Assembly: GCA_021735655.1 (NCBI GenBank) | Contig: JAIPGM010000002.1 | Location: forward strand, 192,001-256,000 | Length of the DNA: 64,000 bases | DNA from: Candidatus Omnitrophota bacterium | Lineage (GTDB): Bacteria; Omnitrophota; Gorgyraeia; Duberdicusellales; 4484-171 | Direction: 5' to 3' | Part shown: positions 4,231 through 59,808 of the stretch, piece after piece | Position numbering within the stretch: position 1 is the first letter of the stretch | How the letters are laid out: each line of letters opens with the position of its first letter | Notes under the pieces: model-generated | Seen by the model: only the letters and a program-made list of their open reading frames with translations | What the model was told of the DNA's origin: nothing | The model's database searches: none | Made by a program: the position numbers and the translations under genes

Positions 4231-4295
4231 GGTATGTTTAAATGAGCTAACTCCATAACTTTTTATTTTTTAAAAAGTTAGGTTACTTTTTAACT

Positions 4296-8791: not shown

Positions 8792-8794
8792 GTT

Positions 8795-9091: not shown

Positions 9092-9095
9092 GGAT

Positions 9096-9560: not shown

Positions 9561-9757
9561 CCCCTTTAAGTATTTCTTTTTGATATAACATAAAAACTAA
9601 ACGCCTTAGTGAACTATCTTTTTATATCATAAATTTTATCGCTTGGCAAGATTTTTTTTCACTTTTTTTAATGAGACTTACCCAGAACCAGAACGAAGTT
9701 CAGTTCTGGGTTTAGTCGAATTAATCCCGAGGAGCGAAGCGACGAGGGATAACCGTT

Positions 9758-10990
9758 TTATTCCGCTTTAACCGGGCTTTCTTCTCGTATCTTTGTTGGC
9801 AATCCAATCTTGTTTAACAAATCAATAAATGGATCAGGGTTTAACTCTTCGACATTTACCATTGTTTTTATATCCCAAATGCCTTGAGCAATCAGCATGG
9901 CCGTGGCAACTGGGGGGACTCCAGCAGTGTAGGAAATAGCTTGAGACTCAACTTCCTTATAACATTCGGCGTGGTCACAGTTGTTATAAATAAAAATTTC
10001 CTTGTCTTTGCCGTCTTTTTTTCCTTTAATTAGATTTCCGATACAGGTTTTTCCGGTGTAGTTAGGTGCAAGTGATAAGGGATCTGGCAAAACGGCCTTT
10101 AATACTTTTAATGGCACCACTTCGACTCCTTCTGCGGTTGTGACCGGTTTCACTGAGGTTAAACCCAATCTAGTGAGGACAGTAAAGATATTGATATAAT
10201 GGTCGCTAAAACCCATCCAGAAGCGGATACTATTAGCATCGATATTCTTTGACAATGAATGGATTTCGTCGTGACCGCTTAAGTAAATAGTTTGTTTTCC
10301 AACTTCCGGAAAATCATAGGTTTTTTTAACTGAGTGGACAGGTAGACATTCCCATTTTCGGTCAATCCAGGTCCAGACTTTTATAAATTCACGAAGGTTT
10401 ATCTCCGGATCAAAGTTGGTAGCAAAATATTTTCCGTGGTCTCCGGCATTAACATCCATCATATCAATAGTGTCGATTGTGTCAAAGTGGTGCTTTACAG
10501 CATAGGCGCAGTAGGCGTTGACCACTCCTGGATCAAAGCCTGCTCCGAGGATTGCGGTGATTTGTTTTTCCGAGCATTCATCCTTTCGTTTCCATTCATA
10601 ATTAGCGTACCAAGGTGGATTCTCGCAAACCTTATTTGGATCTTCATATATGGCAGTGTCTATATAGGATACGCCAGCCTGGATGCAAGATTCAAGCAGT
10701 GCTTTATTTATATAGGTGGTGGCAAGGTTAATTATTATTTCTGAATTAGTTTCTTTAATTAGTTTTACCGTAGCCGAAACATCATAGGCATCTATTTGAC
10801 GAGAGTGAAGTTTTTTGCTTTTATCTTTTAGGCTATTTTTTCTTTTAATGCTTTCTATGATTTTTTCACACTTATCTTGTGTGCGAGATGCAATACAAAT
10901 ATCACCTAAAATATCGTTATTTTGAGCGCACTTATGCGCAGCTACATGGGCAACTCCACCAGCACCGACAATCATTACGTTTTTTTTCAT
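9758..10990 (-). CDS. carboxy(nor)spermidine dehydrogenase (saccharopine dehydrogenase family)
   Basis: N-terminal Rossmann IVGAGGVAHVAA; 410 aa; adjacent to nspC. Confidence 0.8.
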   Translation of the reverse strand: MKKNVMIVGAGGVAHVAAHKCAQNNDILGDICIASRTQDKCEKIIESIKRKNSLKDKSKKLHSRQIDAYDVSATVKLIKETNSEIIINLATTYINKALLESCIQAGVSYIDTAIYEDPNKVCENPPWYANYEWKRKDECSEKQITAILGAGFDPGVVNAYCAYAVKHHFDTIDTIDMMDVNAGDHGKYFATNFDPEINLREFIKVWTWIDRKWECLPVHSVKKTYDFPEVGKQTIYLSGHDEIHSLSKNIDANSIRFWMGFSDHYINIFTVLTRLGLTSVKPVTTAEGVEVVPLKVLKAVLPDPLSLAPNYTGKTCIGNLIKGKKDGKDKEIFIYNNCDHAECYKEVESQAISYTAGVPPVATAMLIAQGIWDIKTMVNVEELNPDPFIDLLNKIGLPTKIREESPVKAE

Positions 10991-19780: not shown

Positions 19781-21828
19781 GGAATTCTACGTATATTTTC
19801 CTCGGCCTTTCGGGCATTAAGATAATCCCCATACTCATAAAATAAGTCATGAGCTTTTAGGAAATTTTCTTTAGCTTTTTGGTTTTCTCCTAAAGCGGAG
19901 TAGGTTCTGCCCATGCCGAAGTATACCTGCGGAGAATCAGGTTTTATTATTAAAGCTTTACGGAAGTGCTGAATTGCTTTTTTGTATTGAACTAAGTTGG
20001 TATAAGTTTCCCCTAGGCTATAATGTATTTGAAAGTTGTCAGGGTCAAGGCGCAATGCCTTCTCAAGGTAGTTTAGGGCTTTTTGTTGTTCTGAGGCGTT
20101 TTTATTTTTTAGGCCTAGTTCATTATGGGCCTTAGACAGGCTAACATATATATCGGGAGATTCCGGAATTGAAGCAAGGACTTTTTCATATTTAGTAATT
20201 GCTCTTTCGTATTGACCTAAAGTTAAATAAGTATTCGCTAATCCGAGTTCCGCTGAGATAGAGGTTGGGTCTAATCTTAGGGCCTTTTCGAAATTATCTA
20301 TTGCCTTTTGAGAATCGCCTAAAAGTCTATAGACATCGCCCAAAGATAAATAGGTTAGAAAATAATCATCTTTTAGTTTTTGTGACCTTAGAAGATACTG
20401 TAATGCTTTTTGATATTGGCCAAGCCTTAGGTACACACTTCCAATGCTGCGGTAAATCTCTGGGTCTTTAGAATTTTTGGCTTCGGCATTTTCAATTGCT
20501 CGTTCAAGATATTGCAATGCTTCTTCAGGAATTCCTAAATCAGCGTAAATCTTGCTTAAAGCCTCGATGATGCCCGGGTAGTCAGGCTGTGCGAGAAAGA
20601 CCTGTTTGAATTCTTCAAGAGCTTCCTTGGGCCTATCAAGAATGCGGTAACATTCACCTAAAGGAAAATGAATTGTTGGGTTTCTAGGATCCAGTTTTAG
20701 CGCATAATTAAAAGCAGCCAGGGCTTGTTTGTGGCGACCCAAATTCATGTAGGTTTCACCGAGCAGCACTTGTGCGTAGATATAACCTGGTGAAATTTCA
20801 AGAGTTTTTCTACAGAAGGCTATTACTTTGTCGAAATTTTTGTTTTCACCTTGAGAATACCGATAGGCTTGACTTAGATAAAAGTTTGCTTTATAGAGTT
20901 TAAATAGTGTTTTATTACTGTCAGCTTCGGGTGGGTACAAGAAAACTTTGTTAACTTCACCAGTTGATGATTTGAATAAAACTGTTTTTGTTTTTTTATT
21001 AAAGTTATCGTTTATTGTAGCGCGTTTGATTTGGATAAAAGAAGAGTAGTTTTCGACTATTTCTCTAGTTATTCTTTCAACTTCTTTATCGGGCGTTGGG
21101 ATATCCGGACTATACTTTTTAATTCGGACATTAAAATCGACTATTATCCGAGAGCTTTGGTAGCGAACATCAATATCGTTAACTTCAAAGTTATCGTTTA
21201 AGCTCGGGGCCAAAAAGGTTCTAGAAATTCTTTCTTGAATTAGCATAGGAATAAACTCAGCTAAGCCAACATTATATTTGCGGAGGTAACGACCACGATC
21301 ATCTTCTAGTATGTTTTTATCGATAAAGGGAGTTTGAAAAGAAATAATTCGTTTTTCAAATTCATAGGCGGATATGTTAGTCGCTAAACCATAAGTGGCT
21401 AAGGTTAGTCTTATCTGATCAGGAATAAATATCAGTTCGTATTGGTTCATCCTGATTAAATTTATTCCTTTTAGACGTTGGATATCGGATTTAACAAAAC
21501 AATAAAATATTGGCGGAGCATCCATATTGAGAAGGGCTCGTTGTATTGATTGAGAAATTTTTCTGACAGTTTCAGACAAGTCTTCATCAACTTTTCCTTC
21601 TTCGTTTACTTTAAATTTGCCAGCTTCATCAAAAAATTCAACCGGGGCATAAACCCAAAGAGTCTCTCCAACCAGCCAAGTGCTTACTTCGATTTTATGC
21701 TCTTCCCTACAGATTTTTTTTATTATTTCGGCAATATCTTTACGTGAATAGGTTGGTGGGACAGAACAGGAAATTAGTAGAAGAGCGCAAAAACTAAGCA
21801 GGAGGTTTTTGAGAGGTATTTTTTGCAT
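19777..21828 (-). CDS. TPR-repeat lipoprotein (N-terminal non-TPR domain plus about 10 TPRs)
   Basis: Lipobox LLISCS; many TPR units in C-terminal half; overlaps the tandem FtsH gene by about 35 nt (co-operonic). Confidence 0.7.
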   Translation of the reverse strand: MQKIPLKNLLLSFCALLLISCSVPPTYSRKDIAEIIKKICREEHKIEVSTWLVGETLWVYAPVEFFDEAGKFKVNEEGKVDEDLSETVRKISQSIQRALLNMDAPPIFYCFVKSDIQRLKGINLIRMNQYELIFIPDQIRLTLATYGLATNISAYEFEKRIISFQTPFIDKNILEDDRGRYLRKYNVGLAEFIPMLIQERISRTFLAPSLNDNFEVNDIDVRYQSSRIIVDFNVRIKKYSPDIPTPDKEVERITREIVENYSSFIQIKRATINDNFNKKTKTVLFKSSTGEVNKVFLYPPEADSNKTLFKLYKANFYLSQAYRYSQGENKNFDKVIAFCRKTLEISPGYIYAQVLLGETYMNLGRHKQALAAFNYALKLDPRNPTIHFPLGECYRILDRPKEALEEFKQVFLAQPDYPGIIEALSKIYADLGIPEEALQYLERAIENAEAKNSKDPEIYRSIGSVYLRLGQYQKALQYLLRSQKLKDDYFLTYLSLGDVYRLLGDSQKAIDNFEKALRLDPTSISAELGLANTYLTLGQYERAITKYEKVLASIPESPDIYVSLSKAHNELGLKNKNASEQQKALNYLEKALRLDPDNFQIHYSLGETYTNLVQYKKAIQHFRKALIIKPDSPQVYFGMGRTYSALGENQKAKENFLKAHDLFYEYGDYLNARKAEENIRRIP

Positions 21829-24800
21829 ACTTTTTAAAAATTAGTTCTAGTTCAGATTGGGTAAGCTCTTCTTTTTTTAACAATTCACTTGTTAAATGTT
21901 CGAATAAATCTTTTTCTTTTTCTAATAAAGCAACGGTTGATTTAAGGCAATCCTGAAGTAATTCTTGAGTTTCCATATCTAACTTTGATTTCATTTCTTC
22001 AGACAGTAGATTGTTTTCGTTTTGTTCAAATAAAAAGTCACCAATGTATCCTGAACGACCCATGCCCCAACGCCAAACCATTGATCTAGCATACCACATC
22101 GAAGTTTTAAAATCCTGAGAAACACCATTGGTAGTGCTGGCAGTAATTTTCTCAGCAGCATATCCACCAAGAAAAATCTTGATAGTGGACAATAGTTCTT
22201 CCTTGGTGCCGGCGGAACGATCTCCTTTGGTAGCATACCAAGCTACACCTAAAGTTTTGTCTCTTGGAATAATAGATAACTTAAAGGGGAAATTTCCTTT
22301 TCCAAAAAAATACTCAGCTAAACAATGTCCGGCTTCATGGTAGGCGGTGGCCTTAAGCTCCTCGGGGGTTAATTTTAATTTCTTTTTTAAGCCTAATTCT
22401 ATTCTTTCTCGAGCTTCATCGAGCTCTTTCATACCCAGAATAGTTTTTTTCATTTTAGCAGTTAGAAGAGTGCCTTCTTTAATTAAATTAGCTATATCAG
22501 CCGGGGAATAACCCGGAGTAATACCGGCAAACATTTCAGGGTCAATCTCATCTTTGTTATACTTAGTTTTAGAAAGATAAAACTGAAATAACTGCTTTCT
22601 TTCGTCAAAGGTTGGTAAAGAAACATGGAGTTTTCGATCAAACCTTCCCGGCCTAAGAACCGCTTTATCCAAGTTACTTTCATCGGTATTGGTAGCGCCA
22701 ATAATAACAATATTATATTCAGCATCCTTTTCCTTTAAACCGTCCATTTCAACTAAAAATTGGTTTAAAGTTTGATTATGTTCTTGAGTACCGCCGAAAC
22801 CTTTGTCCATAGCCCTTTTGGCGCATAAAGCATCAATTTCATCAATAAAAATTATACAGCCACCTTTGGCTAATGCTTGCTCTCTAGCTTCCCTGAACAT
22901 TTGGCGCACTCGGCTTGCGCCCACACCGACAAACATTTCTACGAATTCTGAACCAGCCTTAGCGATAAAAGGGATCCCTGCCTCATTAGCGATAGCAGAG
23001 GCAAGATAAGTTTTTCCGCATCCAGGAGGGCCAAGCATTAACAAACCCTTAATAATTTGTCCACCCATTTGTTTTAGGTTGGCTCGGTCTTTTATTAAGC
23101 TGACAATTTCTTTGGCTTCGTCTTTTGCGCCTTCCATACCAATGATATCATCCCAACCTATAGAATCTTTTTTTGACTTTTTCATTCCTTCCATTATATA
23201 AGTAAGCCTAGTTTTCCCATGTTTTTTGAAGGTTTCTTCTATTTGATCGTAATCTAACTCTTCTTCTTTTAATAAACGGTTAGCAATTTCATCTAAAATT
23301 ACTTTTTCTCGACGTAATATTTCATTGACTTCATCCAAACATTTATTAATGATATCTTCTTTGTCTCTTTCAGAAATTTGCGAAGGGAAGCCATGTTCTT
23401 GAGTTATACCTCCTGGGCCCGAAGTCCCCATGCCCCACTGATCTACCATTTTCATCGCTAGATTGTTTGCTTGTTTAAGATCTTTCCCTACTCCGGAAGA
23501 TACCGAACCAAAGCGAATTTTTTCAGCAGCATAACCACCAAGAAAACTCTTTATTTGACCTAAAAGATATTCTTTATCCGGGATGTGGCGTTCTTCTTTG
23601 TCCCTTGTCCAGGTAACCCCTCCGGCTGAACGTCTAGGAATAATACTAGCCTTAAAAACATCTTGAGTTGGCACTAAAAAGTAAGTAGCCAGTGTGTGTC
23701 CGGCTTCATGGTAGGCGGCAATTTTTTTATCTTGGAGAGATAACACATATTCAGCTTTTATCCCGATATCGATTCTTTCTTTTGCGTCATGGATGTCGGA
23801 CAAATCAACTTGATTTTTTTTCTTACGGGTAGCAATTAGAGAAGATTCACGAACAATGTTTGCTATGTCAGCTGGGCTATTGCCAACTGTAAAACGAGCT
23901 AACTTAGCAAAATCAATTTTTTCCTTATTGTAGGAAATCTTGGTGAAATAGTATTGTAAAAGATCTTCACGTTCTTTTAACCCGGGGAGCCCAACATAAA
24001 CTTTGCGGTCGAATCGTCCGGGACGCATTAGGGCGCTATCAAGTTCACTCTCGGGAACATTTGTCGCCGCGATTATTACGATATTGTCTTTGGCAGTATC
24101 TAACCCGTCCAATTCAGTTAAAAGCTGATTAACGGTAGCATTATAATCTTGACCGGCACGGCCGCCTCCGGAACTTTCTATTCTCGGTCGGGCGAAAGTA
24201 TCAATTTCATCGATAAAAATTATACAACCACCATCTATTTCAGCGGAGATTCTGGCTTCCTTAAATAGGCTTTTTACTCGATTGGCGCCAACCCCGACAA
24301 ACATACCTTGGAATTCACTACCGGCAACGTGAAGAAAGGGGAGTTTCGTTTCAGTAGCGATAGCTTTAGCCAGATAAGTCTTTCCGCATCCAGGAGGGCC
24401 AATCATTAAAACACCTTTAATAATTTTTCCGCCAACCCGGTCTAAATTAGTATGGTCATTTATGAGCTGAATTACTTCCCAGACTTCCTTCTTTATGTTT
24501 TCCATCCCAATAACGTCAGACCATCTGACATTCACTGATTGCGGTTTTACTTTTTTTGATTTTAATTTATCAAGACCTCCCCCCCAAAGAAAGTATACAA
24601 ATATACTTGTCGTTATTGCACCGGATACAGTACCGACAATTAGCATAAAAAAGATTTGCAGAGGAATACCGGCAAGCATTGATTTACGAAAAAAAGAATC
24701 TAACTGGAAGAAGGTTCGAAGGCCAACAGTGGTTAAAGCAATTATGCTTAGAATTAGGAGAATAGCTACACTTATTATCGTAACTTTTATCCAGTGTAGT

Positions 24801-24841
24801 TTTATATACTTTGTTAATCGTTGATTTGAGCTATTTGCCAT
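21794..24841 (-). CDS. internally duplicated FtsH-like membrane protease: TM-TM-AAA+-M41-AAA+-M41 (start moved to MANSS ATG with GGGAGG RBS)
   Basis: Two copies each of Walker A GPPGCGKT, Walker B IIFIDEID, pore loop MFVGVG, SRH ATN..RPGRFDR and zinc site HEAGH. Confidence 0.85.
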
Positions 24842-24977
24842 GGATTCGCCTCCCGAGATTAAGAATACCATATATTTTTATTATTGTCTACTTCTTAGAT
24901 GTTGCCAACACCTATTTTAATAAGGTTTCCCTGCTCTGTAAGCGATTACATCTATATTCATATATATAAAAAATAGC

Positions 24978-27954: not shown

Positions 27955-29238
27955 ATGAAAAAAATACTTAAGTTTACTGCTATCATTGTCTTATTGTTGT
28001 TTGTTTTTGGCTGTTCTGGTCAAAAACCTAAAGACGGCACAGTGGTCGTTTGGCATTGGATGACCGACAGAAAAGATGCTTTTTTAGAGTTAGCTAAAAA
28101 GTATCAGGCTGAAACCGGCGTAACTGTTGAATTTAAACTGCTATTTCCTCCGGAAACCTATTCAATGAAGGTTACTGCCGGAGCCCGAGCAAAAACCCTA
28201 CCTGATATTTTTGGTATTTTAGGTGAGAAAAAAACAGTTGGTTCGTTCATTCGGGCAAAGCATATATCTGATCTTACTTCCGATATGACTGCTGATTCAA
28301 AAACATGGCAGAAACGTTTTTACCCTCAAACTTTAGATGTAGTTGTATTTAAGAAAAACAATTATTCTGGTGTCAAACCGGGAATATACGGTGTCCCAAT
28401 AGATACTACGGTTATGCAGTTTGTTTATAACAAATCACTTCTTAATGATTTAGGCTTGCCAGGACCTCCGGAAACTTTTGAGGATTTTATCAACTATGCA
28501 AATCGAGTAAAAGAAAAAGAAAAAACTTTCGGTTTTGTTTGTGGCTGGGGTGAAGGCTGGTTGCTTAATGCTTTAGCGACTGAATGGGCAATAAACCTTA
28601 TGGGGGAAAAGAAGTTTTTAAGTACCCTTGAAGGGAGTGTTTCTTATACTGACCCTGACTGGATAAAGGTTTTTTCATTATTCGAGACCTTGCGTAACTC
28701 CGGCATTCTTTCACCGAATATCGCGACTATGACCAACAAAGAGTCAGAGAATGCTTTTTCTAAAGGCAAAGCTTTGTTTTCTTTTAATGGTAGTTGGTCA
28801 ATGAATGTTTATGCACAACTTAATCCCGAACTTAATTATGGCTTTTTTTCACTTCCCAAGGTTTCGAAAAATTATCCGGTAAAGGTTTGGGGAGGTTCAG
28901 GAACCTCGTTTATGGTTAATGACCGTTCTCCTAATAAGGACAAAGCCATTGAATTTCTTAAATGGTTAACCAAAAAGGAACAACAGATCTTTTTGATTAA
29001 GGAAACTAACAATCTGCCGGCGATTAAAGGCTGTGAAGATCAGATGTCAGAAAGGCTTAAAAAACTTACTTTAAATTTAAATAACCTTACTCATCCTGAT
29101 GTTTGGCCGGGCAATGAGGATTCAAGGGTAATTGAATCTTTGAATCGTGGCCTGCAGCAAATAGTCATGGGCCTCAAAAAACCTCAAGAGGTTGCTAAAG
29201 AGGTGCAGGAAAAGAAAGACAAAATTGTAAAAAGATGA
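27955..29238 (+). CDS. sugar ABC transporter substrate-binding lipoprotein (SBP family 1)
   Basis: Lipobox FGCSG; SBP_bac_1-like; GGGAGG RBS. Confidence 0.75.
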   Translation: MKKILKFTAIIVLLLFVFGCSGQKPKDGTVVVWHWMTDRKDAFLELAKKYQAETGVTVEFKLLFPPETYSMKVTAGARAKTLPDIFGILGEKKTVGSFIRAKHISDLTSDMTADSKTWQKRFYPQTLDVVVFKKNNYSGVKPGIYGVPIDTTVMQFVYNKSLLNDLGLPGPPETFEDFINYANRVKEKEKTFGFVCGWGEGWLLNALATEWAINLMGEKKFLSTLEGSVSYTDPDWIKVFSLFETLRNSGILSPNIATMTNKESENAFSKGKALFSFNGSWSMNVYAQLNPELNYGFFSLPKVSKNYPVKVWGGSGTSFMVNDRSPNKDKAIEFLKWLTKKEQQIFLIKETNNLPAIKGCEDQMSERLKKLTLNLNNLTHPDVWPGNEDSRVIESLNRGLQQIVMGLKKPQEVAKEVQEKKDKIVKR

Positions 29239-30149
29239 ATTCTTCGGTAAAAGAGAATAGCGTAAATTTTTCATTCATTTTTCCAGCCCTTTTTATTTTT
29301 TCGGTTTTTTATATCTACCCCTTCTTTTACAGTTTCATTTTAAGTTTAACTAATTATGATCTGATTGGAGATTTTAACTTAAAAGAATACTATATCGGCT
29401 TTGGTAATTTTCAAGACGCCTTAACCGACAAAGACTGGTGGAGTTCGATGTATAACGGAGGCTTCATCACCTTTTGGGCTTTGACTTTTCAAAATATTTT
29501 AGCATTTGCTTTAGCTCTTGCTGTCGATAAGGTAGTACGGTTAAAGAAATTTTATCGAGTCGTATTTTTTATTTTGCCGGTTCTTTCAGAAATTATAATC
29601 GGTTTATTAATGAAACAACTTTTGATTGGTGAGCCTATCGGCAGGGATGTGTTTAATCATATTTTAACTAACCTCCATTTGGGATTTTTAGCTCAGGATT
29701 GGATTGGCGGAGAGAATGTACGTCTGGTTACGGCCTTAGTCCATTGCTGGAAAGGCTTTGGGTGGGCGTTTGTTATATTTTTTGCTGGTTTACAAACTAT
29801 TCCTGAACAACTATACGAGGCAGCAAAAATTGACGGCGCTGGAGCCTGGCAGCAATTTCGTAAAATTACCGTCCCTTTGCTTATGCCCGTCATTACTCTA
29901 ATTATTGTTCTTACAATATTAGGCACTATGCAGGCCTTTGCTATGATCTTAGCTTTAAATGCCGGGGCTGGAGGCCAAACGACGGTGCCGGTTATGATTA
30001 TTTTTTCTCATATTGGCGGAGCCAGTAAGCTGGCCGGGCTAGCCTGCGCCGAGGGTCTTATTCTAGGGGTGATGCTGGTTATAGTTTCATTTACTATGTT
30101 TTTTGTTTCCAAAAAAGTAAAGGAAAAATATGGTGTATTACCGAGCTAA
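29235..30149 (+). CDS. sugar ABC transporter permease (MalF/UgpA-like)
   Basis: EAA loop AAKIDGAGAWQQFRKITVP; 6 TM. Confidence 0.8.
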   Translation: MNSSVKENSVNFSFIFPALFIFSVFYIYPFFYSFILSLTNYDLIGDFNLKEYYIGFGNFQDALTDKDWWSSMYNGGFITFWALTFQNILAFALALAVDKVVRLKKFYRVVFFILPVLSEIIIGLLMKQLLIGEPIGRDVFNHILTNLHLGFLAQDWIGGENVRLVTALVHCWKGFGWAFVIFFAGLQTIPEQLYEAAKIDGAGAWQQFRKITVPLLMPVITLIIVLTILGTMQAFAMILALNAGAGGQTTVPVMIIFSHIGGASKLAGLACAEGLILGVMLVIVSFTMFFVSKKVKEKYGVLPS

Positions 30150-30969
30150 GAAAATAGTCACTTTAATTATTTTACATACATTTCTTTTTAGTGTTGCCTT
30201 GAGTTGTATTTTTCCTTTTTTCTGGATGATTAACGTATCCTTAAAAACTCAAAGCCAATATGATGCTGACTCAGGCTTAAAAATTTCTAGTTCTTTAAAT
30301 TGGGACAACTATTACAAAGTAATAGTTGAAGGTGAATTTTGGCGTTATATTGTTAACAGTGTTATTTATACGTTCTCTACGGTTATTTTTATTGTTCTTG
30401 TATCTTCTTTAGCCGCCTATGGATTTTCCCGTCTTCATTTTCCCGGTAAGAATATTATCTTTTTTATGTTTTTGGCGGCGATGATGATACCGCTTCCAGC
30501 CGGTTTTGTTCCAGTGTATGCACTCTTGCAACAACTAGGTCTCTTAAATCGAACCGGATATGTTTTAGCTATGACAAATATCGGTCTTTCTTTCAGTATC
30601 TACCTTTTAAAAACTTTTTTTGACCAATTGCCGCGCGATCTTGAGGATGCAGCCAGAATGGACGGTTGCACCAAGTTTCAAATTTATTGGCATGTTGGTT
30701 TGCCTTTAGTTGCTCCAGCTCTTGGCGTAGTTGTTATTTTCAACGCTTTAAATGTTTGGAATGAGTTTGTTTTAGCTAAACTTATATTTACTGACGAACA
30801 ATTTATGCCCCTTCAAGCTGGATTAATGGAATTTACTGGGAAAATGGTAACCCAACACACTCTGATCATGGCCGCTTTAACCATAGCGGCTCTTCCGATA
30901 ATTCTATTGTATATTAAGATGCAAAAGCAATTTATTAAAGGGCTTACTGCCGGAGCAGTGGTAGGATAA
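30130..30969 (+). CDS. sugar ABC transporter permease (MalG/UgpE-like)
   Basis: EAA loop DAARMDGCTKFQIYWHVGLP. Confidence 0.8.
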   Translation: MVYYRAKKIVTLIILHTFLFSVALSCIFPFFWMINVSLKTQSQYDADSGLKISSSLNWDNYYKVIVEGEFWRYIVNSVIYTFSTVIFIVLVSSLAAYGFSRLHFPGKNIIFFMFLAAMMIPLPAGFVPVYALLQQLGLLNRTGYVLAMTNIGLSFSIYLLKTFFDQLPRDLEDAARMDGCTKFQIYWHVGLPLVAPALGVVVIFNALNVWNEFVLAKLIFTDEQFMPLQAGLMEFTGKMVTQHTLIMAALTIAALPIILLYIKMQKQFIKGLTAGAVVG

Positions 30970-33284
30970 TGAAAACTATAGTTAAAAATTTAATTTTACT
31001 TTTATTTCTATCTAACCTCTTAATAGTTGAAAGTTACTCTCAAGAAACTGCGAAACTTGAGAAGTCCAAACATGTTAATAGTGCTTGGTCTCTACGCGGT
31101 CAGAAAAAATACGAACAAGCCTACGAAGAAGTAGACGCTTGCATTGCTAACCTGACTGATAATGCTAATCGCCTAGCGAAAGCTTTAACTGGGCCAACCG
31201 ATGAAGTTAAAAAATCTAGCTATCAAAATATGAATGATATTGCTGAATGTTACTTTATTAGAGCTGAAATATTTCGTGATCAGACAAAGTATGAGGAAGC
31301 TAGTAAAGCTTTCAGCGTCATTATTGAAAAATATCCTTACGCTCAGTGCTTTGACCCCCGGGGCTGGTTTTGGTCTCCGGCCAATGCAGCAAAAGACGCT
31401 ATAAAGGAAATAGCTAATGTTAAACTAGAAGAAAAAATTACCATCGAACCAGAGGTTCCAATCAGTCTTTACGACCCCGGGTTGGAATTCCCGGTTGATT
31501 ACTTAAAATATGGTGAATTTAAAGGTGAGGGAACTGAAGATTACGAATATATTACTAGTGACCCAATAGGCCTATCTAAAGCTGTTGGTGAGGGAATTTA
31601 TCCAAACACTAGTTCGATTAAATTTGATCCAGGATTCATTGCGATCAAGAAAACACTTTCTAGTATTGACCACTGGAAGATCTTAAATAGCCGAAACTTA
31701 AAATTAGCTTTTTATAAGTGGAATATGGCTCCTGAGCCTCAGGGAGTGAAGCAATTTCATTTAGCGGAAATTTTAGAAAGAAGTGGCCTGGTTGAATCGG
31801 CGATAAAAGCTTACTATGCTGCATTGGTTCATTTTCCAAAAAGTTATGGCTGGACTTATTGGCATACACCTTGGTATGTATCTAAGGTGGCACTTTACCG
31901 AATAAAATATTTACTTAAAAAAAATCCCGAACTCAATCTTGCTCTCGAAGGAGCTGAAGTTAAAATAATTAACGGCTACGATAACGATATTCGTAATGAT
32001 ATCTTCTTAGTCAGCCCAGGTCGTTTAGTCGCACTTTCATTCTGGGAAAAAAGCTTCATTGACAACTCTTGTTCTGCTCGCAAGCAAAAACTTGGAGAAG
32101 TTGTTAAGAGTAGCGGAAATATAATTAAACTAGTCAATTATCAACCCGGAGGATGGCAACTATTGTTAAATGATAAGCCATTTATGGTCAAAGCAATAAC
32201 TTACGGACCTACTAGAGTTGGAGAATCTCCTGATGATGGTAGTATGCAGAACTGGACTACTCAGGATTTAAATGAAAATGGAATTATTGACTCAGGTTTT
32301 GAAACTTGGGTTGATAAAAACCAAAATAATCTTCAAGATGAAGGGGAAAAAGTGGTTGGCGATTTTGCTCTTCTTAAGCAAATGGGGGCTAACTCGATTA
32401 GGCTCTATCATCAGCCTCTAGAATTAAATAAAAAAATTCTTCGACAAATGTATGAAAAATATGGTATATATGTACTACTGGGTGATTTCCTTGGTAAATA
32501 CGCCTTAGGTAGTGGTGCAGATTGGGACCCAGGAACCGATTATGATAATCCGGACCAAAAGCAGAAAATGCTTGAAAGTATTGAGAAAATGGTCCGAGAG
32601 TTTAAGGATGAACCCTACGTTCTGATGTGGCTTTTAGGTAACGAAAACGTTTATGGTCTAGGATGTAATGCTGACAAGAAGCCAGAAAGCTTCTTTAAAT
32701 TTGCTAATGAGGCAGCCCGCCTCATTAAGTCTTTAGATCCAAAAAAGCGTCCAGTAGCCATTGTTTCAGGGGATATTCTGTATTTAGATATCTTTGCTAA
32801 AAATTGCCCTGACATTGATATTTTTGGTACCAATGCTTATCGGGGAAAATATGGGTTTTTAGATATTTGGGATGAAGTTAGCCGAGTTGCGAATAAAGCA
32901 ACGATGATAACCGAGTATGGTACTTCTTCTTATGCCAAGGGTTACTCTTTGGAGGAAGCTGAACAATACCAAGCCGGCTATCATCGAGCTTGTTGGGAAG
33001 ATATAATCTGTAACTCTGCTGGTTTCGGAGCTGGAAATGCCGTTGGCGGAATAGCTTTCGAATGGATAGACGAGTGGTGGAAGGCGTATAAGCCTGCTTA
33101 CCACGATCGTAAAGGTCTTTTTAGCGGGCCGTTTCTTGATGGATATATGCATGAAGAATGGCTTGGTGTCTCTGGTCAGGGCGATGGAAGTAAATCACCT
33201 TATTTGCGCCATTTAAAAAAGTCTTATTTTACGTACAAAGAACTTTGGAATCAACCTTGCGAAGAAAGGGTAAGTAAAAATTAG
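30969..33284 (+). CDS. secreted two-domain protein: N-terminal helical (TPR-like) domain plus C-terminal clan GH-A TIM-barrel glycoside hydrolase (family uncertain)
   Basis: Signal peptide; LLGNENVYG (acid/base region), ITEYGTSSY (nucleophile region), FEWIDEWWK shared with paralog 34646-36028. Confidence 0.55.
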   Translation: MKTIVKNLILLLFLSNLLIVESYSQETAKLEKSKHVNSAWSLRGQKKYEQAYEEVDACIANLTDNANRLAKALTGPTDEVKKSSYQNMNDIAECYFIRAEIFRDQTKYEEASKAFSVIIEKYPYAQCFDPRGWFWSPANAAKDAIKEIANVKLEEKITIEPEVPISLYDPGLEFPVDYLKYGEFKGEGTEDYEYITSDPIGLSKAVGEGIYPNTSSIKFDPGFIAIKKTLSSIDHWKILNSRNLKLAFYKWNMAPEPQGVKQFHLAEILERSGLVESAIKAYYAALVHFPKSYGWTYWHTPWYVSKVALYRIKYLLKKNPELNLALEGAEVKIINGYDNDIRNDIFLVSPGRLVALSFWEKSFIDNSCSARKQKLGEVVKSSGNIIKLVNYQPGGWQLLLNDKPFMVKAITYGPTRVGESPDDGSMQNWTTQDLNENGIIDSGFETWVDKNQNNLQDEGEKVVGDFALLKQMGANSIRLYHQPLELNKKILRQMYEKYGIYVLLGDFLGKYALGSGADWDPGTDYDNPDQKQKMLESIEKMVREFKDEPYVLMWLLGNENVYGLGCNADKKPESFFKFANEAARLIKSLDPKKRPVAIVSGDILYLDIFAKNCPDIDIFGTNAYRGKYGFLDIWDEVSRVANKATMITEYGTSSYAKGYSLEEAEQYQAGYHRACWEDIICNSAGFGAGNAVGGIAFEWIDEWWKAYKPAYHDRKGLFSGPFLDGYMHEEWLGVSGQGDGSKSPYLRHLKKSYFTYKELWNQPCEERVSKN

Positions 33285-33364
33285 AATTACAGAAACACGA
33301 AATAACCACGGGAAGTGTAAAATTTCTGTAATTCTAGTAAGTAGTTAAGGTAGTCCGTGGTTAT
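33282..33364 (+). promoter_or_regulatory. interleaved perfect inverted repeats (14 bp and 10 bp) in the GH1-to-CBM-like intergenic region; candidate RNA pseudoknot or switch
   Basis: TAGAATTACAGAAA 33282-33295 pairs with TTTCTGTAATTCTA 33323-33336; ATAACCACGG 33302-33311 pairs with CCGTGGTTAT 33355-33364. Confidence 0.5.
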
Positions 33365-33386
33365 AAGAAAAGAGGAGGTTCACGAA

Positions 33387-34577
33387 ATGGGCAAAAGACT
33401 TTTGTTGAGCATTTTCTGTTTTGTTGCGGCGACTGGATTTGTCGTAGGCAGCTATGCCTTGAGTGGCGAATGTTTGGCTGTAGATAATTTCTTTGTCTAT
33501 ACCGACAAAAATTCACCACAGAATAACTTTATTCCTAGTGGTTGGATGGGTGACTATGGGGATTTGCGGATGAACGACCAGGCAACTGATGAGTACGCTT
33601 CTGGAGCAACCTCAATTAAGATCACCTATACCGCAAAAAAAGCCCAAAATCAGGGCTGGGCTGGTATTTTCTGGCAATCAGCACAAGGCAACTGGGGCGA
33701 GAAAGATACTGGAATTGATTTAAGTCGTTACAACAAGCTTGTTTTAAAAGCTAAGGGTGAAAACGGCGGCGAGGTAATAACCAAAATAAAGGTTGGTGGA
33801 ATTACTAATAATTCAGCTACTGGAGAGCCAGTATCTTTTCCTGACACTCTTGATGTAGAATCGGGACCAATACGCCTAACTAATGACTGGCAAGAATATT
33901 CTATAAATCTTGCTGAGCAAGATTTATCTAACGTTAACGGCGGCTTTGCTATAATTTTCAACGTTGATCATGCTGAAGGTGGACAAACAATCTATCTAGA
34001 TGAAATTCACTTTACTTATGATGCCGGACTAAAAAAAGAAGAAGCAAGAGTTAATCTTCCTTTTTATGTTTATGCTGATTCAAACTCTTTAGACAATCAC
34101 TTCATTCCCAGTGGTTGGATGCCGGCAACTGCCGCAAGAGATTTGCATATAAACACAAATTGGAAAAATTACCCTTTTTCAGGTGACAGCTCGATAAGAG
34201 TTGAATACAAAAATGAATCAGGAACACGTTGGGCTGGCATCTATTGGCAGCAACCGGCAAATAACTGGGGAACAGTACCTAATGCTGGATATAATCTTCA
34301 AGGGGCCAGCAAACTTACTTTTTGGGCTCGTGGAGACAGCGGAGCTGAAGTAATCAATGAATTCAAAGTTGGAGGAATTTCCAGCGGCGAGTATATTGAT
34401 TCTGACAGTGCCAGTATCGGCCCAGTTCAGTTATCTCCTGAATGGAAAAAGTATGAGATTGATTTGACCGGTAAAGACCTTTCATACATTATTGGTGGTT
34501 TTTGCTGGGCAACTAACATCGACGTAAACGATCCAGAAGGAATAGTATTTTACCTCGATGAAATTGCTTACGAATAA
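33387..34577 (+). CDS. secreted protein with two tandem about 190-aa CBM-like repeats (start moved to ATG after AAGAGGAGG RBS)
   Basis: Signal peptide; repeats share FIPSGWM, WAGI(F/Y)WQ, NWG, KVGGI and YLDEI blocks. Confidence 0.6.
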   Translation: MGKRLLLSIFCFVAATGFVVGSYALSGECLAVDNFFVYTDKNSPQNNFIPSGWMGDYGDLRMNDQATDEYASGATSIKITYTAKKAQNQGWAGIFWQSAQGNWGEKDTGIDLSRYNKLVLKAKGENGGEVITKIKVGGITNNSATGEPVSFPDTLDVESGPIRLTNDWQEYSINLAEQDLSNVNGGFAIIFNVDHAEGGQTIYLDEIHFTYDAGLKKEEARVNLPFYVYADSNSLDNHFIPSGWMPATAARDLHINTNWKNYPFSGDSSIRVEYKNESGTRWAGIYWQQPANNWGTVPNAGYNLQGASKLTFWARGDSGAEVINEFKVGGISSGEYIDSDSASIGPVQLSPEWKKYEIDLTGKDLSYIIGGFCWATNIDVNDPEGIVFYLDEIAYE

Positions 34578-34591
34578 ACGGAAATAATAAA

Positions 34592-34621
34592 CCCTACTAG
34601 AGACTTTGTTCTCTAGTAGGG
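34592..34621 (+). terminator. perfect 12-bp stem hairpin (CCCTACTAGAGA/TCTCTAGTAGGG, 6-nt loop) downstream of the CBM-like gene
   Basis: Direct inspection; followed by AT-rich, T-containing tract. Confidence 0.5.
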
Positions 34622-34645
34622 CAGTCTTAATTTAAATTTTATTTT

Positions 34646-36028
34646 ATGTTTAAAAACTTTAAATTTACTTGGGCTAATTTTAAAATAGACAGAAAACGTG
34701 CTCAACGTCTTTGTGTAGCATTCATTTTTTTAATGCTGATTGGAATATTTGGCTATCTTTTAGCTTATACCCGTTTTTTAACCCTTCAATCTAAAACGAT
34801 AAGCCTTATTTCTCTGAACAAAAAATTAACAGCTAAACTTAAAAATTGTCGGGAGCGACTTGAATTATGTCAAGATCGCTTTGTAAAAAAAGTTGAAATA
34901 ATCCCTAATTCTTGCGGTGGTTACAACTTTTATGTTAAAGGAAAACCTTTTCTAGTAAAAGGCGTAGGCTATAATCCTACGCCAATAGGTAAAGGTTACG
35001 ACTATGAACTTTTCAGCGATGAGACTAAACCTTGGCTCGTTGACGGTAAACTTATGAAAGAGGCCGGCATAAACTGTGTCCGTATTTATTCAACTGGTAG
35101 TGATTTAGAAAAAGTTAAAGAATTTATCAGTGATATGTATGAAAAATTTGGTATTTATACTTTAGTTAGCGATTGGCTAGGATTGTGGGATTATCCACGA
35201 GCAAACTATGCCGATCAAAAATTTCGTGAACGAACTAAGAAAAGAATTTTAGGAATCGTTGAAGCCTTAAAAAATGAAGAAGGCCTATTAATGTGGATCC
35301 TTGGTAATGAAAATAACTATACCTTTTCCGGGCGTATTGGATTTTGGACTTCAAATGAAATCGAAAAGCTTCCTGAAGCTTGTGATAAGCAAAATAAACG
35401 CGCTGAGATTTACTACAGTTTTGTTAATGACCTCACTTTAGCGATTAAAAAAATAGACCCGTTGCATCCAATAGCTTTAGGCAATGGTGAGGCTAACTTT
35501 CTTCAAATTGCCTCTCAACAGGCCAAAGATGTAGATCTTCTAGCAATAATTATCTATCGTGGTAAAAGTTTCGGTAATTTATTCAATAGCGTTCGTCACT
35601 CTTTCGATAAACCGATTATGCTTTCAGAATTTGGCTCCGATTCTTATGATGCTTATCGTGAGAAGGAAGACCAGGATATTCAATCTGAATTTTTAATTTC
35701 GCAGTGGAAAGATTTGTATGCTAATACCACAATCAGCGGTAACTGCGAAGCAAATGCGATCGGTGGGTCTCTTTTTGAATGGAATGATGAGTGGTGGAAG
35801 CATAATGAGGGTTACAGCGATGGCTGGAGCATCCACGATACCGAAGCTGGCTGGTCTCACGGAGCCTATTTTTTTGATATTCGTGCCAAAAATAATTTGA
35901 ATATGAATGAAGAATGGTTTGGTATCGTTAGCTTAAGTAAAGACAAGGAAAATGGAATAAATAAAAGGAATCCTAAAAAGTCTTACTACGATCTTCGTAC
36001 TTTTTTCGGCCAACCTTATACCGATTAA
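34646..36028 (+). CDS. membrane-anchored clan GH-A glycoside hydrolase, paralog of the C-terminal domain of 30969-33284
   Basis: N-terminal TM; ILGNENNYTF, LSEFGSDSY and FEWNDEWWK motifs. Confidence 0.55.
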   Translation: MFKNFKFTWANFKIDRKRAQRLCVAFIFLMLIGIFGYLLAYTRFLTLQSKTISLISLNKKLTAKLKNCRERLELCQDRFVKKVEIIPNSCGGYNFYVKGKPFLVKGVGYNPTPIGKGYDYELFSDETKPWLVDGKLMKEAGINCVRIYSTGSDLEKVKEFISDMYEKFGIYTLVSDWLGLWDYPRANYADQKFRERTKKRILGIVEALKNEEGLLMWILGNENNYTFSGRIGFWTSNEIEKLPEACDKQNKRAEIYYSFVNDLTLAIKKIDPLHPIALGNGEANFLQIASQQAKDVDLLAIIIYRGKSFGNLFNSVRHSFDKPIMLSEFGSDSYDAYREKEDQDIQSEFLISQWKDLYANTTISGNCEANAIGGSLFEWNDEWWKHNEGYSDGWSIHDTEAGWSHGAYFFDIRAKNNLNMNEEWFGIVSLSKDKENGINKRNPKKSYYDLRTFFGQPYTD

Positions 36029-36072
36029 TAACAGTTTTGTTGCACAGACTATTTTGATATAATGTAATTTGG

Positions 36073-36705
36073 ATGAAAAATTATTGGAATCTAGCCATAA
36101 CTTTCTCTTTGATTTTTCATAGTGCCTTAATTATACGCTTACCTCAATTGACTTTTTTTAGCAAAAAAAGAAACGCTGTTAAAACGGAAATTAAAAAAGA
36201 AGTAACCATGGTACCTGAAAATGTTAAAGAGAAGGTAAAGGTCAGGACTGATTCGATAGCCCTAATCGAACCTGCACCTTATACTGAAAATATTATGGAT
36301 ACGCTTATAAAAAATGGCGGTATTACCACAATGAGTAAAACTGATGTTTTTGAAAAAAACATTAAAGAAATCGTTCTTTCTGAAATACCGCCACACAATA
36401 AGGAACTAAAAAAAAATCCAGCCTATATGAACTATTATCGTCTTATCCGAGAAAAAATACGTAGTAATACTTATCGTTACTATCGCTCAAGTAATACTGG
36501 TAAGGTATTGTTAAGCTTCATCGTGCTTAAAGACGGTGACTTAGGTGAGTTTTTTCTAGACGATGAATCAGTGGCTGATGATGGTTTGCGCCAGATAACT
36601 CTAGAAAGCATTAAAGATGCAGCTCCTTTTCCGCCTTTCCCTGATGAGTTAAGTAATTATACCCAGCTTAGCTTTCGTATCCCAATTTACTTTAAAAATA
36701 ATTAA
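36073..36705 (+). CDS. TonB C-terminal-domain-like protein
   Basis: N-terminal TM, C-terminal TonB_C-like block (GKVLLSFIVLKDGDL...FPPFPDEL). Confidence 0.5.
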   Translation: MKNYWNLAITFSLIFHSALIIRLPQLTFFSKKRNAVKTEIKKEVTMVPENVKEKVKVRTDSIALIEPAPYTENIMDTLIKNGGITTMSKTDVFEKNIKEIVLSEIPPHNKELKKNPAYMNYYRLIREKIRSNTYRYYRSSNTGKVLLSFIVLKDGDLGEFFLDDESVADDGLRQITLESIKDAAPFPPFPDELSNYTQLSFRIPIYFKNN

Positions 36706-36853: not shown

Positions 36854-36881
36854 TTGACATTCGAGGTTAGGATTATATAAT
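36854..36881 (+). promoter_or_regulatory. consensus sigma70 promoter TTGACA-16-TATAAT, 6 nt upstream of ATG (leaderless)
   Basis: -35 at 36854-36859, -10 at 36876-36881, ATG 36888, no SD. Confidence 0.55.
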
Positions 36882-47368: not shown

Positions 47369-48931
47369 ATGAGTAACAAACCCTGGACTACAAAACTCTC
47401 AGTTTTAGACAAAAGAGTTAGTGCTTTTAGCGAAGGCTATCGTCAAAACATTGCTCTTTTGGGTAATGATGCCGAAGAGACAGCTTATCTTTTACAGAAT
47501 TACCGAGAACTAAAAAACCACAATCAATTTGTCTATATCCATATCTCGACAGTTTATGCCGGAAAAAAAGAGTTATTGAAGGCGACAATCCTTTCTTTAC
47601 TCAGTAGCTATGCCGATAAGACTGATAGCCTCGATAATCTTATTTATGCCGTGAGCTCAGTTCTTCCTTTAACTACCGAGAATATAAAAAACTGTCTCAA
47701 GAAAAACTCTATCTGTTTTTTGGATATTTTGGAAATAATTAACGCTTTTATTAACGAAAGTGGTTCACGTTGCGTTTTTATTATCGAAGAATTTCTAGGG
47801 GTAGTTGCTCTCTTTGAAAACTTCTATTCTGATTTCTCAAAGTTTATAATTTTACAACAAAATTGCATGATCATTCTTGCCGCTTCTTCGGAACGATTGG
47901 CTCAAAAAGTTCTTTCTGATGAATTAAATTTACTATTTGGTAACTTTGAGATTATTTCTCTAAGCGAAGAGTCTTTTCTCAATAGCTTCGTTTATTTAAA
48001 AAATTTACTCCCATCAATTACCCCATCACCGTTTTTTTTATCGTTTTTTGCTAACTTTTTGGGTTCAAACTGTATATATTATGACTCTCTGGCTAAAAGT
48101 ATAAAAGACAAGTACCAGTCTGATAATGAAGAGAGCGCAATAATTTCTATATTGGAGGAATTTTTATATAGGCAAGAGACATACTGTTTCCAACGTTTTA
48201 TCAAAAATATAGACAAATTAAAATTTATTTTTAAGGATTTTCAGCCAACCCTTAAATTACTGACGTCGATCAGTCAAGGCTATATGCGTAAAAAAGAACT
48301 CTTAGCTTTAGGGTTTTGTGATTCCAAAGAATTAAATAGCAAATTGCAAAAACTGATTGACTCAAATTACATAGTTAATTTTGGAAATATCTATAAAATC
48401 CGCGATTCTTTATTCTCATTTTGGTTATCACATGTATTCGAACTACACTCTTTATTCCCCTTACATAACCCTAAACAGCGGAAACAATTTTTTAAAGAAA
48501 AACTTAAAAAGGAAATATCTCTTTTTAAAGATGAGTTTTATACGGATTCCTTAAAGAAAGTTTTGCAACTCTTTGCTTCCTTTAAAAATGACACTTTGAA
48601 ACTCGGGAAGACCAGGTACAGCTTGCCGACTATAGAACGAACCAAAACTATTTCCTACCCTCAAAGAGATTTCCACTTTATCATCGGAGAAGGAAAAGAA
48701 ATAATTTTTGCCGGAATCAAAGGTAAAGATGCCGACGATATTGACATGACTGATTTTATTGAGAAGGGAGCAAACATCCGCGGTAAGGGAGTGAAAAAAA
48801 TATTTATATCATTAGGTACATTGCCATCAGCCACACGTTTAATTGCTAAAAATAATAAAATCGCCATTTGGGATCTTCAGGAGCTCAATAAACTTTTACA
48901 TATATATAATAAACCGGTTTTTTCTCAATAA
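47369..48931 (+). CDS. hypothetical 520-aa protein, archaeal-type-ATPase-like with degenerate P-loop and restriction-endonuclease-like C-terminus (DUF234-like)
   Basis: LLGNDAEETAYLL sits where Walker A would be (no Lys); VFIIEEF Walker-B-like; charged C-terminal block. Confidence 0.3.
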   Translation: MSNKPWTTKLSVLDKRVSAFSEGYRQNIALLGNDAEETAYLLQNYRELKNHNQFVYIHISTVYAGKKELLKATILSLLSSYADKTDSLDNLIYAVSSVLPLTTENIKNCLKKNSICFLDILEIINAFINESGSRCVFIIEEFLGVVALFENFYSDFSKFIILQQNCMIILAASSERLAQKVLSDELNLLFGNFEIISLSEESFLNSFVYLKNLLPSITPSPFFLSFFANFLGSNCIYYDSLAKSIKDKYQSDNEESAIISILEEFLYRQETYCFQRFIKNIDKLKFIFKDFQPTLKLLTSISQGYMRKKELLALGFCDSKELNSKLQKLIDSNYIVNFGNIYKIRDSLFSFWLSHVFELHSLFPLHNPKQRKQFFKEKLKKEISLFKDEFYTDSLKKVLQLFASFKNDTLKLGKTRYSLPTIERTKTISYPQRDFHFIIGEGKEIIFAGIKGKDADDIDMTDFIEKGANIRGKGVKKIFISLGTLPSATRLIAKNNKIAIWDLQELNKLLHIYNKPVFSQ

Positions 48932-59744: not shown

Positions 59745-59752
59745 ACTTAAAT

Positions 59753-59762
59753 ATTATACCAA
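59753..59762 (-). promoter_or_regulatory. extended -10 (TGGTATAAT) 8 nt upstream of the HD-GYP start codon (leaderless)
   Basis: Minus-strand TTGGTATAAT ATTTAAGT ATG; no SD. Confidence 0.4.
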
Positions 59763-59808
59763 AGTTAGATCGTTTTGATAGGGATAAAAGATATGCTTTC
59801 GGCGAGAA

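Follow-up and report, generated by a model that had tools for sequence, protein, structure and literature searches.

What does a compact cluster of transporter and glycoside hydrolase genes do for the Omnitrophota that carry it, and on which glycan does it act? The question is raised by a 64-kb stretch of DNA from a Candidatus Omnitrophota bacterium (the window hereafter; 64,000 nucleotides of contig JAIPGM010000002.1). Seven open reading frames (ORFs) follow one another there on the plus strand, with the order and gene content that an earlier note on this DNA had listed and with coordinates that agree exactly (Table 1). They code for a sugar-binding protein (SBP), two permeases, a 771-residue glycoside hydrolase (GH771), a protein built from two modules that resemble carbohydrate-binding modules (CBMx2), a second glycoside hydrolase of 460 residues (GH460), and a TonB-like protein. 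We favor a reading in which the first six genes form an operon for extracytoplasmic glycan harvesting and import, probably of a substrate of the beta-1,3-glucan type. Taken as a whole, this reading has an even chance of being correct, and its general mechanism of harvesting followed by import is likely. An operon that joins carbohydrate-active enzymes (CAZymes) with an importer is in itself unsurprising. What is notable is that the unit is conserved throughout the phylum and that it includes members of two widespread families that are uncharacterized.

The first three genes have the makeup of a CUT1 carbohydrate importer of the ATP-binding cassette (ABC) type, namely a family-1 SBP accompanied by one MalF-like and one MalG-like permease. 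The SBP matches the Pfam families SBP_bac_1 (E = 1.2e-31) and SBP_bac_8 (3e-31), and its N-terminus finishes in a lipobox-like FVFGC sequence. Both permeases carry a BPD_transp_1 domain (2.9e-14 for permease 1 and 1.2e-16 for permease 2), and the NCBIfam models describe the former as UgpA-like (7.7e-25) and the latter as MalG- or GlcU-like (3e-30). The locus had initially been described as polysaccharide-utilization-like, but this label does not fit in the Sus-type sense. Neither the seven proteins nor their neighbors contain SusC or SusD domains, and the locus is instead a CAZyme cluster with a CUT1 ABC importer. The remark that the operon lacks an ATPase was accurate. There is no such gene in the cluster, and the MalK-type LSGGQ/Walker-A motif is absent from all ORFs of at least 100 amino acids in the window. 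CUT1 systems are usually without an ATPase of their own and rely on a shared MsiK or MalK ATPase. The ATPase that would power this importer is likewise probably encoded elsewhere in the genome and shared.

Comparable CAZyme clusters of the Gram-positive or Thermotoga type also combine an SBP and two permeases, without an ATPase, in one operon with glycosidases. The Omnitrophota unit differs from these in that it resides in a diderm, PVC-related phylum, extends throughout that phylum, and has no regulator gene within the cluster. At least two divergent lineages of Omnitrophota have a gene for a sugar symporter of the GPH/MFS_2 type (about 507 amino acids) inserted between permease 2 and GH771 (positions 8425-9954 of locus L041 and 3905-5425 of locus L059; the Pfam search, run on the L041 protein only, gave 1.5e-58). 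Seven more loci have a similar gap of 1.4-2.1 kb between the same two genes. The presence of a sugar symporter gene at this position in some lineages reinforces the assignment of an import role to the unit.

The extent of the unit was defined by comparison with related loci. When one genome was scanned for each GTDB species, at least 549 stretches proved to encode a relative of GH771. The locus counts given below rest on the best 80 of these, and the proteins of the window were compared with 82 loci by tblastn. The best 80 relatives of GH771 are full-length, are 49-77% identical to it, and are filed under Omnitrophota or placeholder names, with one exception from a Methanosarcinales metagenome-assembled genome (MAG). 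Omnitrophota proteins also make up the best 120 database clusters for GH771 (56-81% identity). Orthologs of CBMx2 are 64-89% identical (65-89% in its best 120 clusters), and the SBP is 44-77% identical across related loci. The genes for the SBP, the two permeases, GH771, CBMx2 and GH460 are colinear on one strand, with 44-91% identity, in every one of the 80 related loci whose contig is long enough, which is the outcome of the neighborhood comparison that the earlier note had called for. Therefore, the conserved unit comprises six genes, and it belongs to the core of the phylum and is not an accessory island.

Complete chromosomes of two Omnitrophota (1.52 and 1.28 Mb) have the gene order FtsH-HflK-HflC-PurU-SBP-permease-permease-GH771-CBMx2-GH460, and HflKC and PurU are located upstream in nearer relatives only. 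The contig from the MAG labeled 'Methanosarcinales archaeon' (L013; JAIWAR010000050.1, 10,990 bp) carries the cluster from HflK to the TonB-like gene with 41-75% identity. Its archaeal label is probably a binning error, and the contig could also stem from an Omnitrophota epibiont that was physically associated with a methanogen.

The two hydrolases are indeed paralogs, as had been proposed. GH460 aligns with residues 368-763 of GH771 over about 400 residues (29% identity, E = 1e-44), and both proteins carry the GNEN, (T/S)E(Y/F)G and FEW(I/N)DEWWK motifs in a barrel of clan GH-A. The AlphaFold (AF2) model of GH771, which has a predicted local distance difference test score (pLDDT) of 84.5, includes a signal peptide (approximately residues 1-24) and an N-terminal domain that resembles tetratricopeptide repeats (TPR) and ends near residue 370; an (alpha/beta)8 barrel follows. 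The acid/base residue is E559 in GNEN and the nucleophile is E649 in TEYG, and the FEWIDEWWK block follows strand 8. These two glutamates are invariant in 44 GH771 orthologs and align with E135 and E221 of the 9oro chain, which correspond to Glu143 and Glu229 of GH158(Pro) in the numbering of its paper. The equivalent residues of GH460 are E222 in GNEN and E328 in SEFG, and the third block reads FEWNDEWWK. All 68 of the GH460 orthologs retain E222, E328, an NEE motif and, within FEWxDEWWK, the F, W, D and EWWK, whereas the E of FEW is present in 67 and a YRGK motif in 65-68 of them. This block had been viewed as atypical, but with FEW, D and EWWK found in 67-68 of the 68 orthologs it is a family-wide trait. 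Because the catalytic pair of glutamates is intact and conserved, both proteins are predicted to be active, retaining, exported enzymes of clan GH-A.

Placing these enzymes in a family is more difficult. GH771 matches the Pfam family Glyco_hydro_2_C (PF02836; 3.3e-15, 56.5 bits), with weak matches to GH72, TPR_6, TPR_2 and TPR_14, and GH460 has marginal matches to GH72 and to Glyco_hydro_2_C (23.1 bits for the latter against a cut-off of 21). When the GH771 sequence was compared with PDB sequences using phmmer, the GH158 laminarinases BuGH158 (6pal, 9e-11) and GH158(Pro) (9oro, 2e-10) were matched over approximately 180-195 residues, and GH2 beta-glucuronidases were matched at 5e-8. A profile made from 44 GH771 sequences gave GH158 at 6e-12, a GH2 beta-glucuronidase at 3e-11 and 6PAL at 1e-10, and Foldseek gave GH158 (1.6e-12), GH2 (6.5e-11), PslG (8.6e-9) and GH72 (1.2e-8). 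GH460 reaches GH158 at 1e-4 only. For both hydrolases, GH2, GH157 and GH72 are nearly as close as the GH158 laminarinases. The two enzymes belong to a clade near GH158 that is not placeable in a characterized family by the Pfam, NCBIfam, PDB and Foldseek comparisons.

A clean assignment to GH158 was not achieved, given that the scores for GH2 are near equal and that the immunoglobulin (Ig)-like domain, made of eight strands, of GH158 enzymes is absent from the GH771 model, in which the approximately 70 residues after strand 8 form short strands and helices. GH771 has in common with BuGH158 (6PAL), an enzyme of a Bacteroides beta(1,3)-glucan locus, and with GH158(Pro) (9ORO) a retaining GH-A barrel whose two glutamates are about 86-90 residues apart. 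However, its identity to them is 18-27% over part of the barrel, and it carries a 350-residue TPR-like N-terminal domain and no Ig-like domain at its C-terminus. With the beta-glucuronidases and beta-galactosidases of GH2, the enzymes share a TIM barrel that scores above the Pfam gathering cut-off, the NEN acid/base motif and the E-x-G nucleophile motif. Assignment to GH2 was rejected because the N-terminal domains of that family are absent. There is no match to Glyco_hydro_2_N or Glyco_hydro_2, and a TPR-like helical region is present instead of the N-terminal sugar-binding jelly-roll and Ig-like domains. Moreover, the NCBIfam equivalog models for GH2 failed widely, giving scores of 17-34 bits against cut-offs of 544-2000.

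The N-terminal domain of GH771 (residues 30-370, approximately) is modeled by AF2 with helices at 2-121 and 199-318 and small beta elements, mostly at a pLDDT of 80-96. It has many invariant residues across the 44 orthologs, and the domain alone has no meaningful relative among PDB sequences. An insert after the first barrel strand (residues 433-460, positions 32265-32348) contains two DxNxNGxID-like loops (DLNENGIID and DKNQNNLQDEGE). Among the 44 orthologs, D433, D441, D449 and E460 of this insert are invariant, and N435, N437, N451, N453 and N454 are nearly so. The double loop resembles calcium-binding motifs of the EF-hand or dockerin type; the insert is absent from GH460, and GH771 has no Pfam dockerin match.

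GH460 consists of a membrane anchor (approximately residues 22-40), a linker and a barrel that begins at about residue 83. Its description as membrane-anchored is therefore appropriate for the protein in the window, but it does not extend to most orthologs, which have a short N-terminus resembling a signal peptide or a lipobox. The N-terminus is hydrophobic in 62 of 69 sequences, and a Cys is located at its end in two of 15 N-terminal stretches. The long anchor is specific to this lineage.

The remaining protein of the six-gene unit, CBMx2, contains a two-fold internal repeat, as had been claimed from its motifs. Its halves share 40% identity (E = 3e-37) and correspond to modules at about residues 44-220 and 235-406 (numbered from a GTG codon at position 33357), and FIPSGWM, WAGI(F/Y)WQ, NWG, KVGGI and YLDEI are found in both. 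Translation most likely starts at the ATG at 33387, to give 396 amino acids, since an AGGAGG sequence is located 8 nucleotides upstream and the methionine of this codon (M11) is nearly invariant in orthologs. The AF2 model (pLDDT 90) consists of two beta-sandwich modules with a type-B-like CBM fold, which agrees with the proposal that the protein is CBM-like. Neither module matches any Pfam family, even at E values up to 10, and CBMx2 has no match among PDB sequences with either a single sequence or a profile. These results, together with the near-equal GH158 and GH2 scores of the hydrolases, leave both the enzymes and the module without a place in a characterized family by the comparisons made, in line with the suspicion of the earlier note, and the outcomes that it had named as refuting (both hydrolases in a well-known subfamily, the repeat protein in a known CBM family) were not obtained. 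The NCBIfam model NF038128 (choice-of-anchor J), which describes a domain without an assigned function, matches two stretches of CBMx2 (34.5 bits, cut-off 30). The modules have their beta-sandwich fold in common with CBM30 (2C24), CBM11 (1V0A) and CBM8 (7T7Z), although sequence tests for CBM30 and CBM11 failed. In addition, CBMx2 is a free-standing secreted protein with two modules and not an enzyme's appendage.

The module itself is not rare, although it had looked atypical at first. When 1.84 billion representative proteins were searched with a profile, it was recovered in 2,876 representative clusters (670 of these below 1e-30). It is common in large multidomain proteins and is present in up to 10 copies. 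Among 45 multidomain proteins with the module, 14 have a Pfam GH17 domain, three have a weak match to CBM30 and one has a match to CBM_11, and those with names include proteins from archaeal MAGs. One protein that combines GH17 with the module (P0258) was used to collect homologs. The module is present in 96 of 120, usually as one copy right after the catalytic domain (1e-42 to 1e-59 in ten proteins), and most of the other 24 are NdvB-like GT2-GH17 proteins. Where sources name these homologs, they use 'glycosyl hydrolase family 17 protein' or 'exo-beta-1,3-glucanase (GH17 family)', and Bacteroidetes, Latescibacterota, Planctomycetota, Omnitrophica and archaeal MAGs are among the sources with names. 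Six proteins (P0319, P0355, P0360, P0358, P0297 and P0381) carry the module as an insertion that separates two segments of a barrel, and this barrel is homologous to those of GH771 and GH460. Sequence mapping places the insertion in the beta3-alpha3 loop. One of the six (P0319, positions 90-2498 of locus L083) is from Omnitrophota and has a secretin gene nearby. These fusions indicate that the module is functionally tied to GH17-family enzymes and to the GH771/GH460 clade.

Based on these features, a plausible route for the glycan can be outlined. GH771 and CBMx2 would bind and cut a polymer or oligomer of the beta-glucan type, either in the periplasm or on the surface of the cell, and GH460, at or near the inner membrane, would trim the products. 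The SBP would then pass oligosaccharides on to the permeases, and the cell would take them up and ferment them. An import function is supported by tight gene spacing and by the colinear conservation of the six genes. The first four genes overlap or abut, and the start of permease 1 overlaps the SBP stop codon by 4 nucleotides. The Bacteroides beta(1,3)-glucan locus follows the same logic, in which an endo-enzyme is combined with glycan-binding proteins that are not catalytic and with an importer of its own. The Omnitrophota unit differs from that locus by having an ABC importer in place of SusC/SusD, a tandem CBM30/CBM11-like protein in place of the surface glycan-binding protein, and two paralogous hydrolases. 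An import role also fits the description of Omnitrophota as sugar fermenters with ABC importers for oligosaccharides (PMC8542988).

The substrate is the weakest step of the reading that we favor. A beta-1,3-glucan resembling laminarin, curdlan or callose is a tentative choice with somewhat less than an even chance, and it is reached by association. The closest characterized enzymes are GH158 laminarinases, the module habitually partners GH17-family proteins of which some are named exo-beta-1,3-glucanases, and the module is also inserted in barrels of the GH771/GH460 family. Several observations dampen our enthusiasm for this choice. Remote similarity within clan GH-A cannot reveal substrate specificity, and GH2 and GH5 are almost as close to the hydrolases as GH158. 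CBM30 and CBM11 bind beta-1,4 and mixed-linkage glucans and are not known to bind pure beta-1,3-glucans. The closest solved relatives of the SBP are binders of chitin oligosaccharides, NagB1 (5e-21) and NagB2 (1.4e-20), rather than of beta-glucans. It is also hard to explain the retention of a laminarin-type locus by all of more than 500 species that come from groundwater, sediment and digesters. Finally, the exported proteins could be either periplasmic or located at the surface.

One alternative concerns the source of the glycan, and it is compatible with the reading favored above. The cluster might belong to a predatory or epibiotic apparatus that, together with giant 'Archaeovorin' proteins and a secretion system, degrades an envelope glycan of the host and imports the fragments. 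West-Roberts et al. (2023, bioRxiv 10.1101/2023.11.21.568195) reported SBPs, permeases and glycosyl hydrolases downstream of most Omnitrophota giant genes and proposed that they degrade prey cell walls, and a 2026 preprint (10.64898/2026.06.07.730766) describes two 'GH2' genes that flank a 147,155-residue protein. Our cluster has in common with these neighbor sets an SBP, binding-protein-dependent permeases and 'GH2' hydrolases. In agreement with this proposal, a long ORF on the same strand ends just 5' of the SBP gene in 20 of the 80 scan loci (L040, L050, L053-L058, L061, L062, L065, L067, L069-L071, L073, L075, L076, L079 and L081). These ORFs measure 1,315-2,164 amino acids within the locus, and most of them run off its 5' end. 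Of four that were scanned, three have methyltransferase, PRK or CheR domains, sigma-70 region 4 or DUF4290 domains were seen as well, and the long ORFs are probably the giant 'Archaeovorin'-type genes of the literature. The universal presence of the cluster in a phylum with host-dependent traits and the full copy on the Methanosarcinales-binned contig point in the same direction. However, the cluster in the window, unlike the published sets, is not adjacent to a giant gene. The longest ORF in the 64 kb has 1,025 codons, and both the window and the two complete genomes show a housekeeping context (FtsH, HflKC and PurU) with no giant gene within 10 kb. Furthermore, the substrates of the closest enzymes are beta-glucans of storage or wall type rather than peptidoglycan or archaeal sheaths. 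On balance, we consider an envelope glycan unlikely. The lifestyle of Omnitrophota, whether predator, epibiont or free-living fermenter, is still debated (PMC10066038; PMC8542988).

The same components are open to other interpretations. The hydrolases might remodel or recycle a periplasmic or exopolysaccharide glucan that the cell itself makes, in the manner of PslG or of the GH17 and GH72 transglycosylases, with the importer recovering fragments. Among the structural neighbors are PslG, which is a membrane-anchored GH39 enzyme from the Psl operon, and two glucanosyltransferases of GH72, Gas2 and Gel4. There are also the weak Pfam GH72 matches, and a core cellular function is suggested by high conservation (50-77% for GH771 and 64-89% for CBMx2) and by the housekeeping neighborhood. 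Yet there is no glycosyltransferase, polymerase or exporter in or beside the cluster in any locus inspected, and its conserved parts are an importer, joined in some lineages by a second sugar symporter, which leaves this role very unlikely. More remote still is the prospect that GH771 and GH460 are ordinary exo-glycosidases of the GH2 type, such as a beta-galactosidase or beta-glucuronidase, acting on small glycosides. The above-cut-off match to Glyco_hydro_2_C, the GH2 beta-glucuronidases recovered in the profile search and the JGI/NCBI names 'beta-glucuronidase' and 'GH2 TIM barrel-domain containing' would fit such enzymes. The missing GH2 domains and the low equivalog scores described above speak against them, as do the partnership and fusion with CBM-fold modules, which argue for a polymeric or oligomeric substrate. 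There is a similarly slight chance that the target contains N-acetylglucosamine (GlcNAc), either as chitin oligosaccharides or in a wall polymer of beta-1,3-linked amino sugars, for example pseudomurein. The similarity of the SBP to NagB1 and NagB2, and to NgcE as its best NCBIfam model (1e-19), is what speaks for this target. The NgcE score of 70.8 bits is far below the cut-off of 399.65, and similarity between CUT1 binders at this level is not known to predict the ligand. In addition, none of the GH neighbors listed is described as a chitinase, hexosaminidase or lysozyme.

A bolder version of the harvesting reading deserves mention, although we regard it as quite unlikely. The six-gene unit might be the core feeding device of Omnitrophota, in which the two hydrolases and CBMx2 assemble into a single complex outside the cytoplasm and each barrel has one module docked at its catalytic face. 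This complex would strip a specific envelope or storage glycan from a host or prey cell and would be functionally coupled to the giant 'Archaeovorin' proteins, which are encoded ahead of the cluster in many lineages. The docking arrangement would mirror the single-chain relatives that carry the module inside the barrel. If this were true, the hydrolases and the module would represent new families of GH and CBM, respectively, and their substrate would define what these ultra-small bacteria live on.

Omnitrophota are widespread, mostly ultra-small and uncultivated, and the six-gene unit offers a concrete, clonable handle on their diet. The two hydrolases, CBMx2 and the SBP are each amenable to expression and screening. 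Two families without a characterized member are represented: a GH-A clade equidistant from GH158 and GH2, and a CBM-fold module that is present in about 2,900 representative clusters and is the usual partner of a large GH17-family clade in bacterial and archaeal MAGs of anaerobes. Once the ligands of both families are defined, CAZymes in metagenomes from sediment and groundwater could be annotated better. Genes of this cluster have been seen before in the Omnitrophota papers cited above, where they are mentioned collectively and the six-gene unit, the tandem-module protein and the affinities of the hydrolases are not resolved; Seymour et al. (2023) do not mention them.

Table 1. Genes, domains and RNA hairpins of the locus, with positions in the window
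Feature	Coordinates	Strand	Length or basis
SBP, family-1 (CUT1) sugar-binding lipoprotein	27955-29238	+	427 aa; SBP_bac_1
Permease 1 (MalF/UgpA type)	29235-30149	+	304 aa; BPD_transp_1
Permease 2 (MalG/UgpE type)	30130-30969	+	279 aa; BPD_transp_1
GH771 (TPR-like domain and GH domain)	30969-33284	+	771 aa; Glyco_hydro_2_C
GH771 N-terminal part: signal peptide and TPR-like helical domain	30969-32099	+	weak TPR hits, AF2
GH771 catalytic (alpha/beta)8 barrel, clan GH-A	32100-33284	+	Pfam, PDB phmmer, profile, Foldseek
RNA hairpin directly 3' of GH771 stop codon	33282-33336	+	RNA folding
CBMx2, tandem-module repeat protein	33387-34577 (GTG ORF start 33357)	+	396 aa (406 from GTG)
12-bp perfect hairpin 3' of CBMx2 stop codon	34592-34621	+	RNA folding
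GH460, GH-A paralog with membrane anchor	34646-36028	+	460 aa; weak GH72, GH2_C
TonB-family-like protein	36073-36705	+	210 aa; TIGR01352

The CBMx2 gene is set off from its neighbors by gaps of 102 nucleotides before it and 68 nucleotides after it, and each gap can form a hairpin. The first has a stem of 13 + 4 base pairs in a 109-nucleotide stretch (-20.3 kcal/mol, z = -2.0). The second is more stable relative to shuffled sequences (-20.5 kcal/mol, z = -3.9, with none of 200 shuffles folding equally well) and is followed by an A/U-rich tract. A terminator scan picked up this second hairpin on the opposite strand, and it might act as a partial terminator or as a stabilizer of the mRNA. The hairpins on both sides, in combination with the strong AGGAGG sequence, suggest that this cistron is differentially expressed or stabilized. 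An Rfam scan of the whole region produced two sub-threshold chance matches only. A perfect sigma-70 consensus (TTGACA, 16 nucleotides, TATAAT) is present on the plus strand at 36854-36881, just 5' of a Memo-like gene at 36888, and this predicted promoter marks a separate transcription unit 3' of the TonB-like gene.

The seventh gene is not part of the conserved unit. Its product has an N-terminal transmembrane helix, a linker and a putative TonB C-terminal domain, and the earlier description of it as TonB-C-like holds to the extent that it scores just above the cut-off of TIGR01352 (28.3 bits against 27.1) while remaining below that of Pfam TonB_C (20.3 bits against 24.6). The gene adjoins the cluster in nine of the 80 scan loci, all from close relatives (37-59% identity), and on this count it was rejected as a core component of the system. 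In the two complete genomes, a PagL-like gene occupies its place.

The cluster in the window is preceded by genes for a tandem FtsH, HflKC and PurU and is followed by genes for the Memo-like protein, AroQ, a prolidase-type M24 peptidase, EF-P and AccC. The tandem FtsH (21794-24871, minus strand) is a 1,025-residue protein with two complete AAA + Peptidase_M41 units in one ORF, whereas the two complete relatives have a single 560-residue FtsH and then a 270-residue ORF. Farther downstream, a 520-residue ORF (47369-48931, plus strand) matches no Pfam family at E values up to 1e-6. Near the end of the window (58341-62790, minus strand), a protein with HAMP and HD (HD_5) domains adjoins a 993-residue protein with multiple PAS domains, GGDEF and HD (HD_5), and this pair points to cyclic-di-GMP signaling in the genome.

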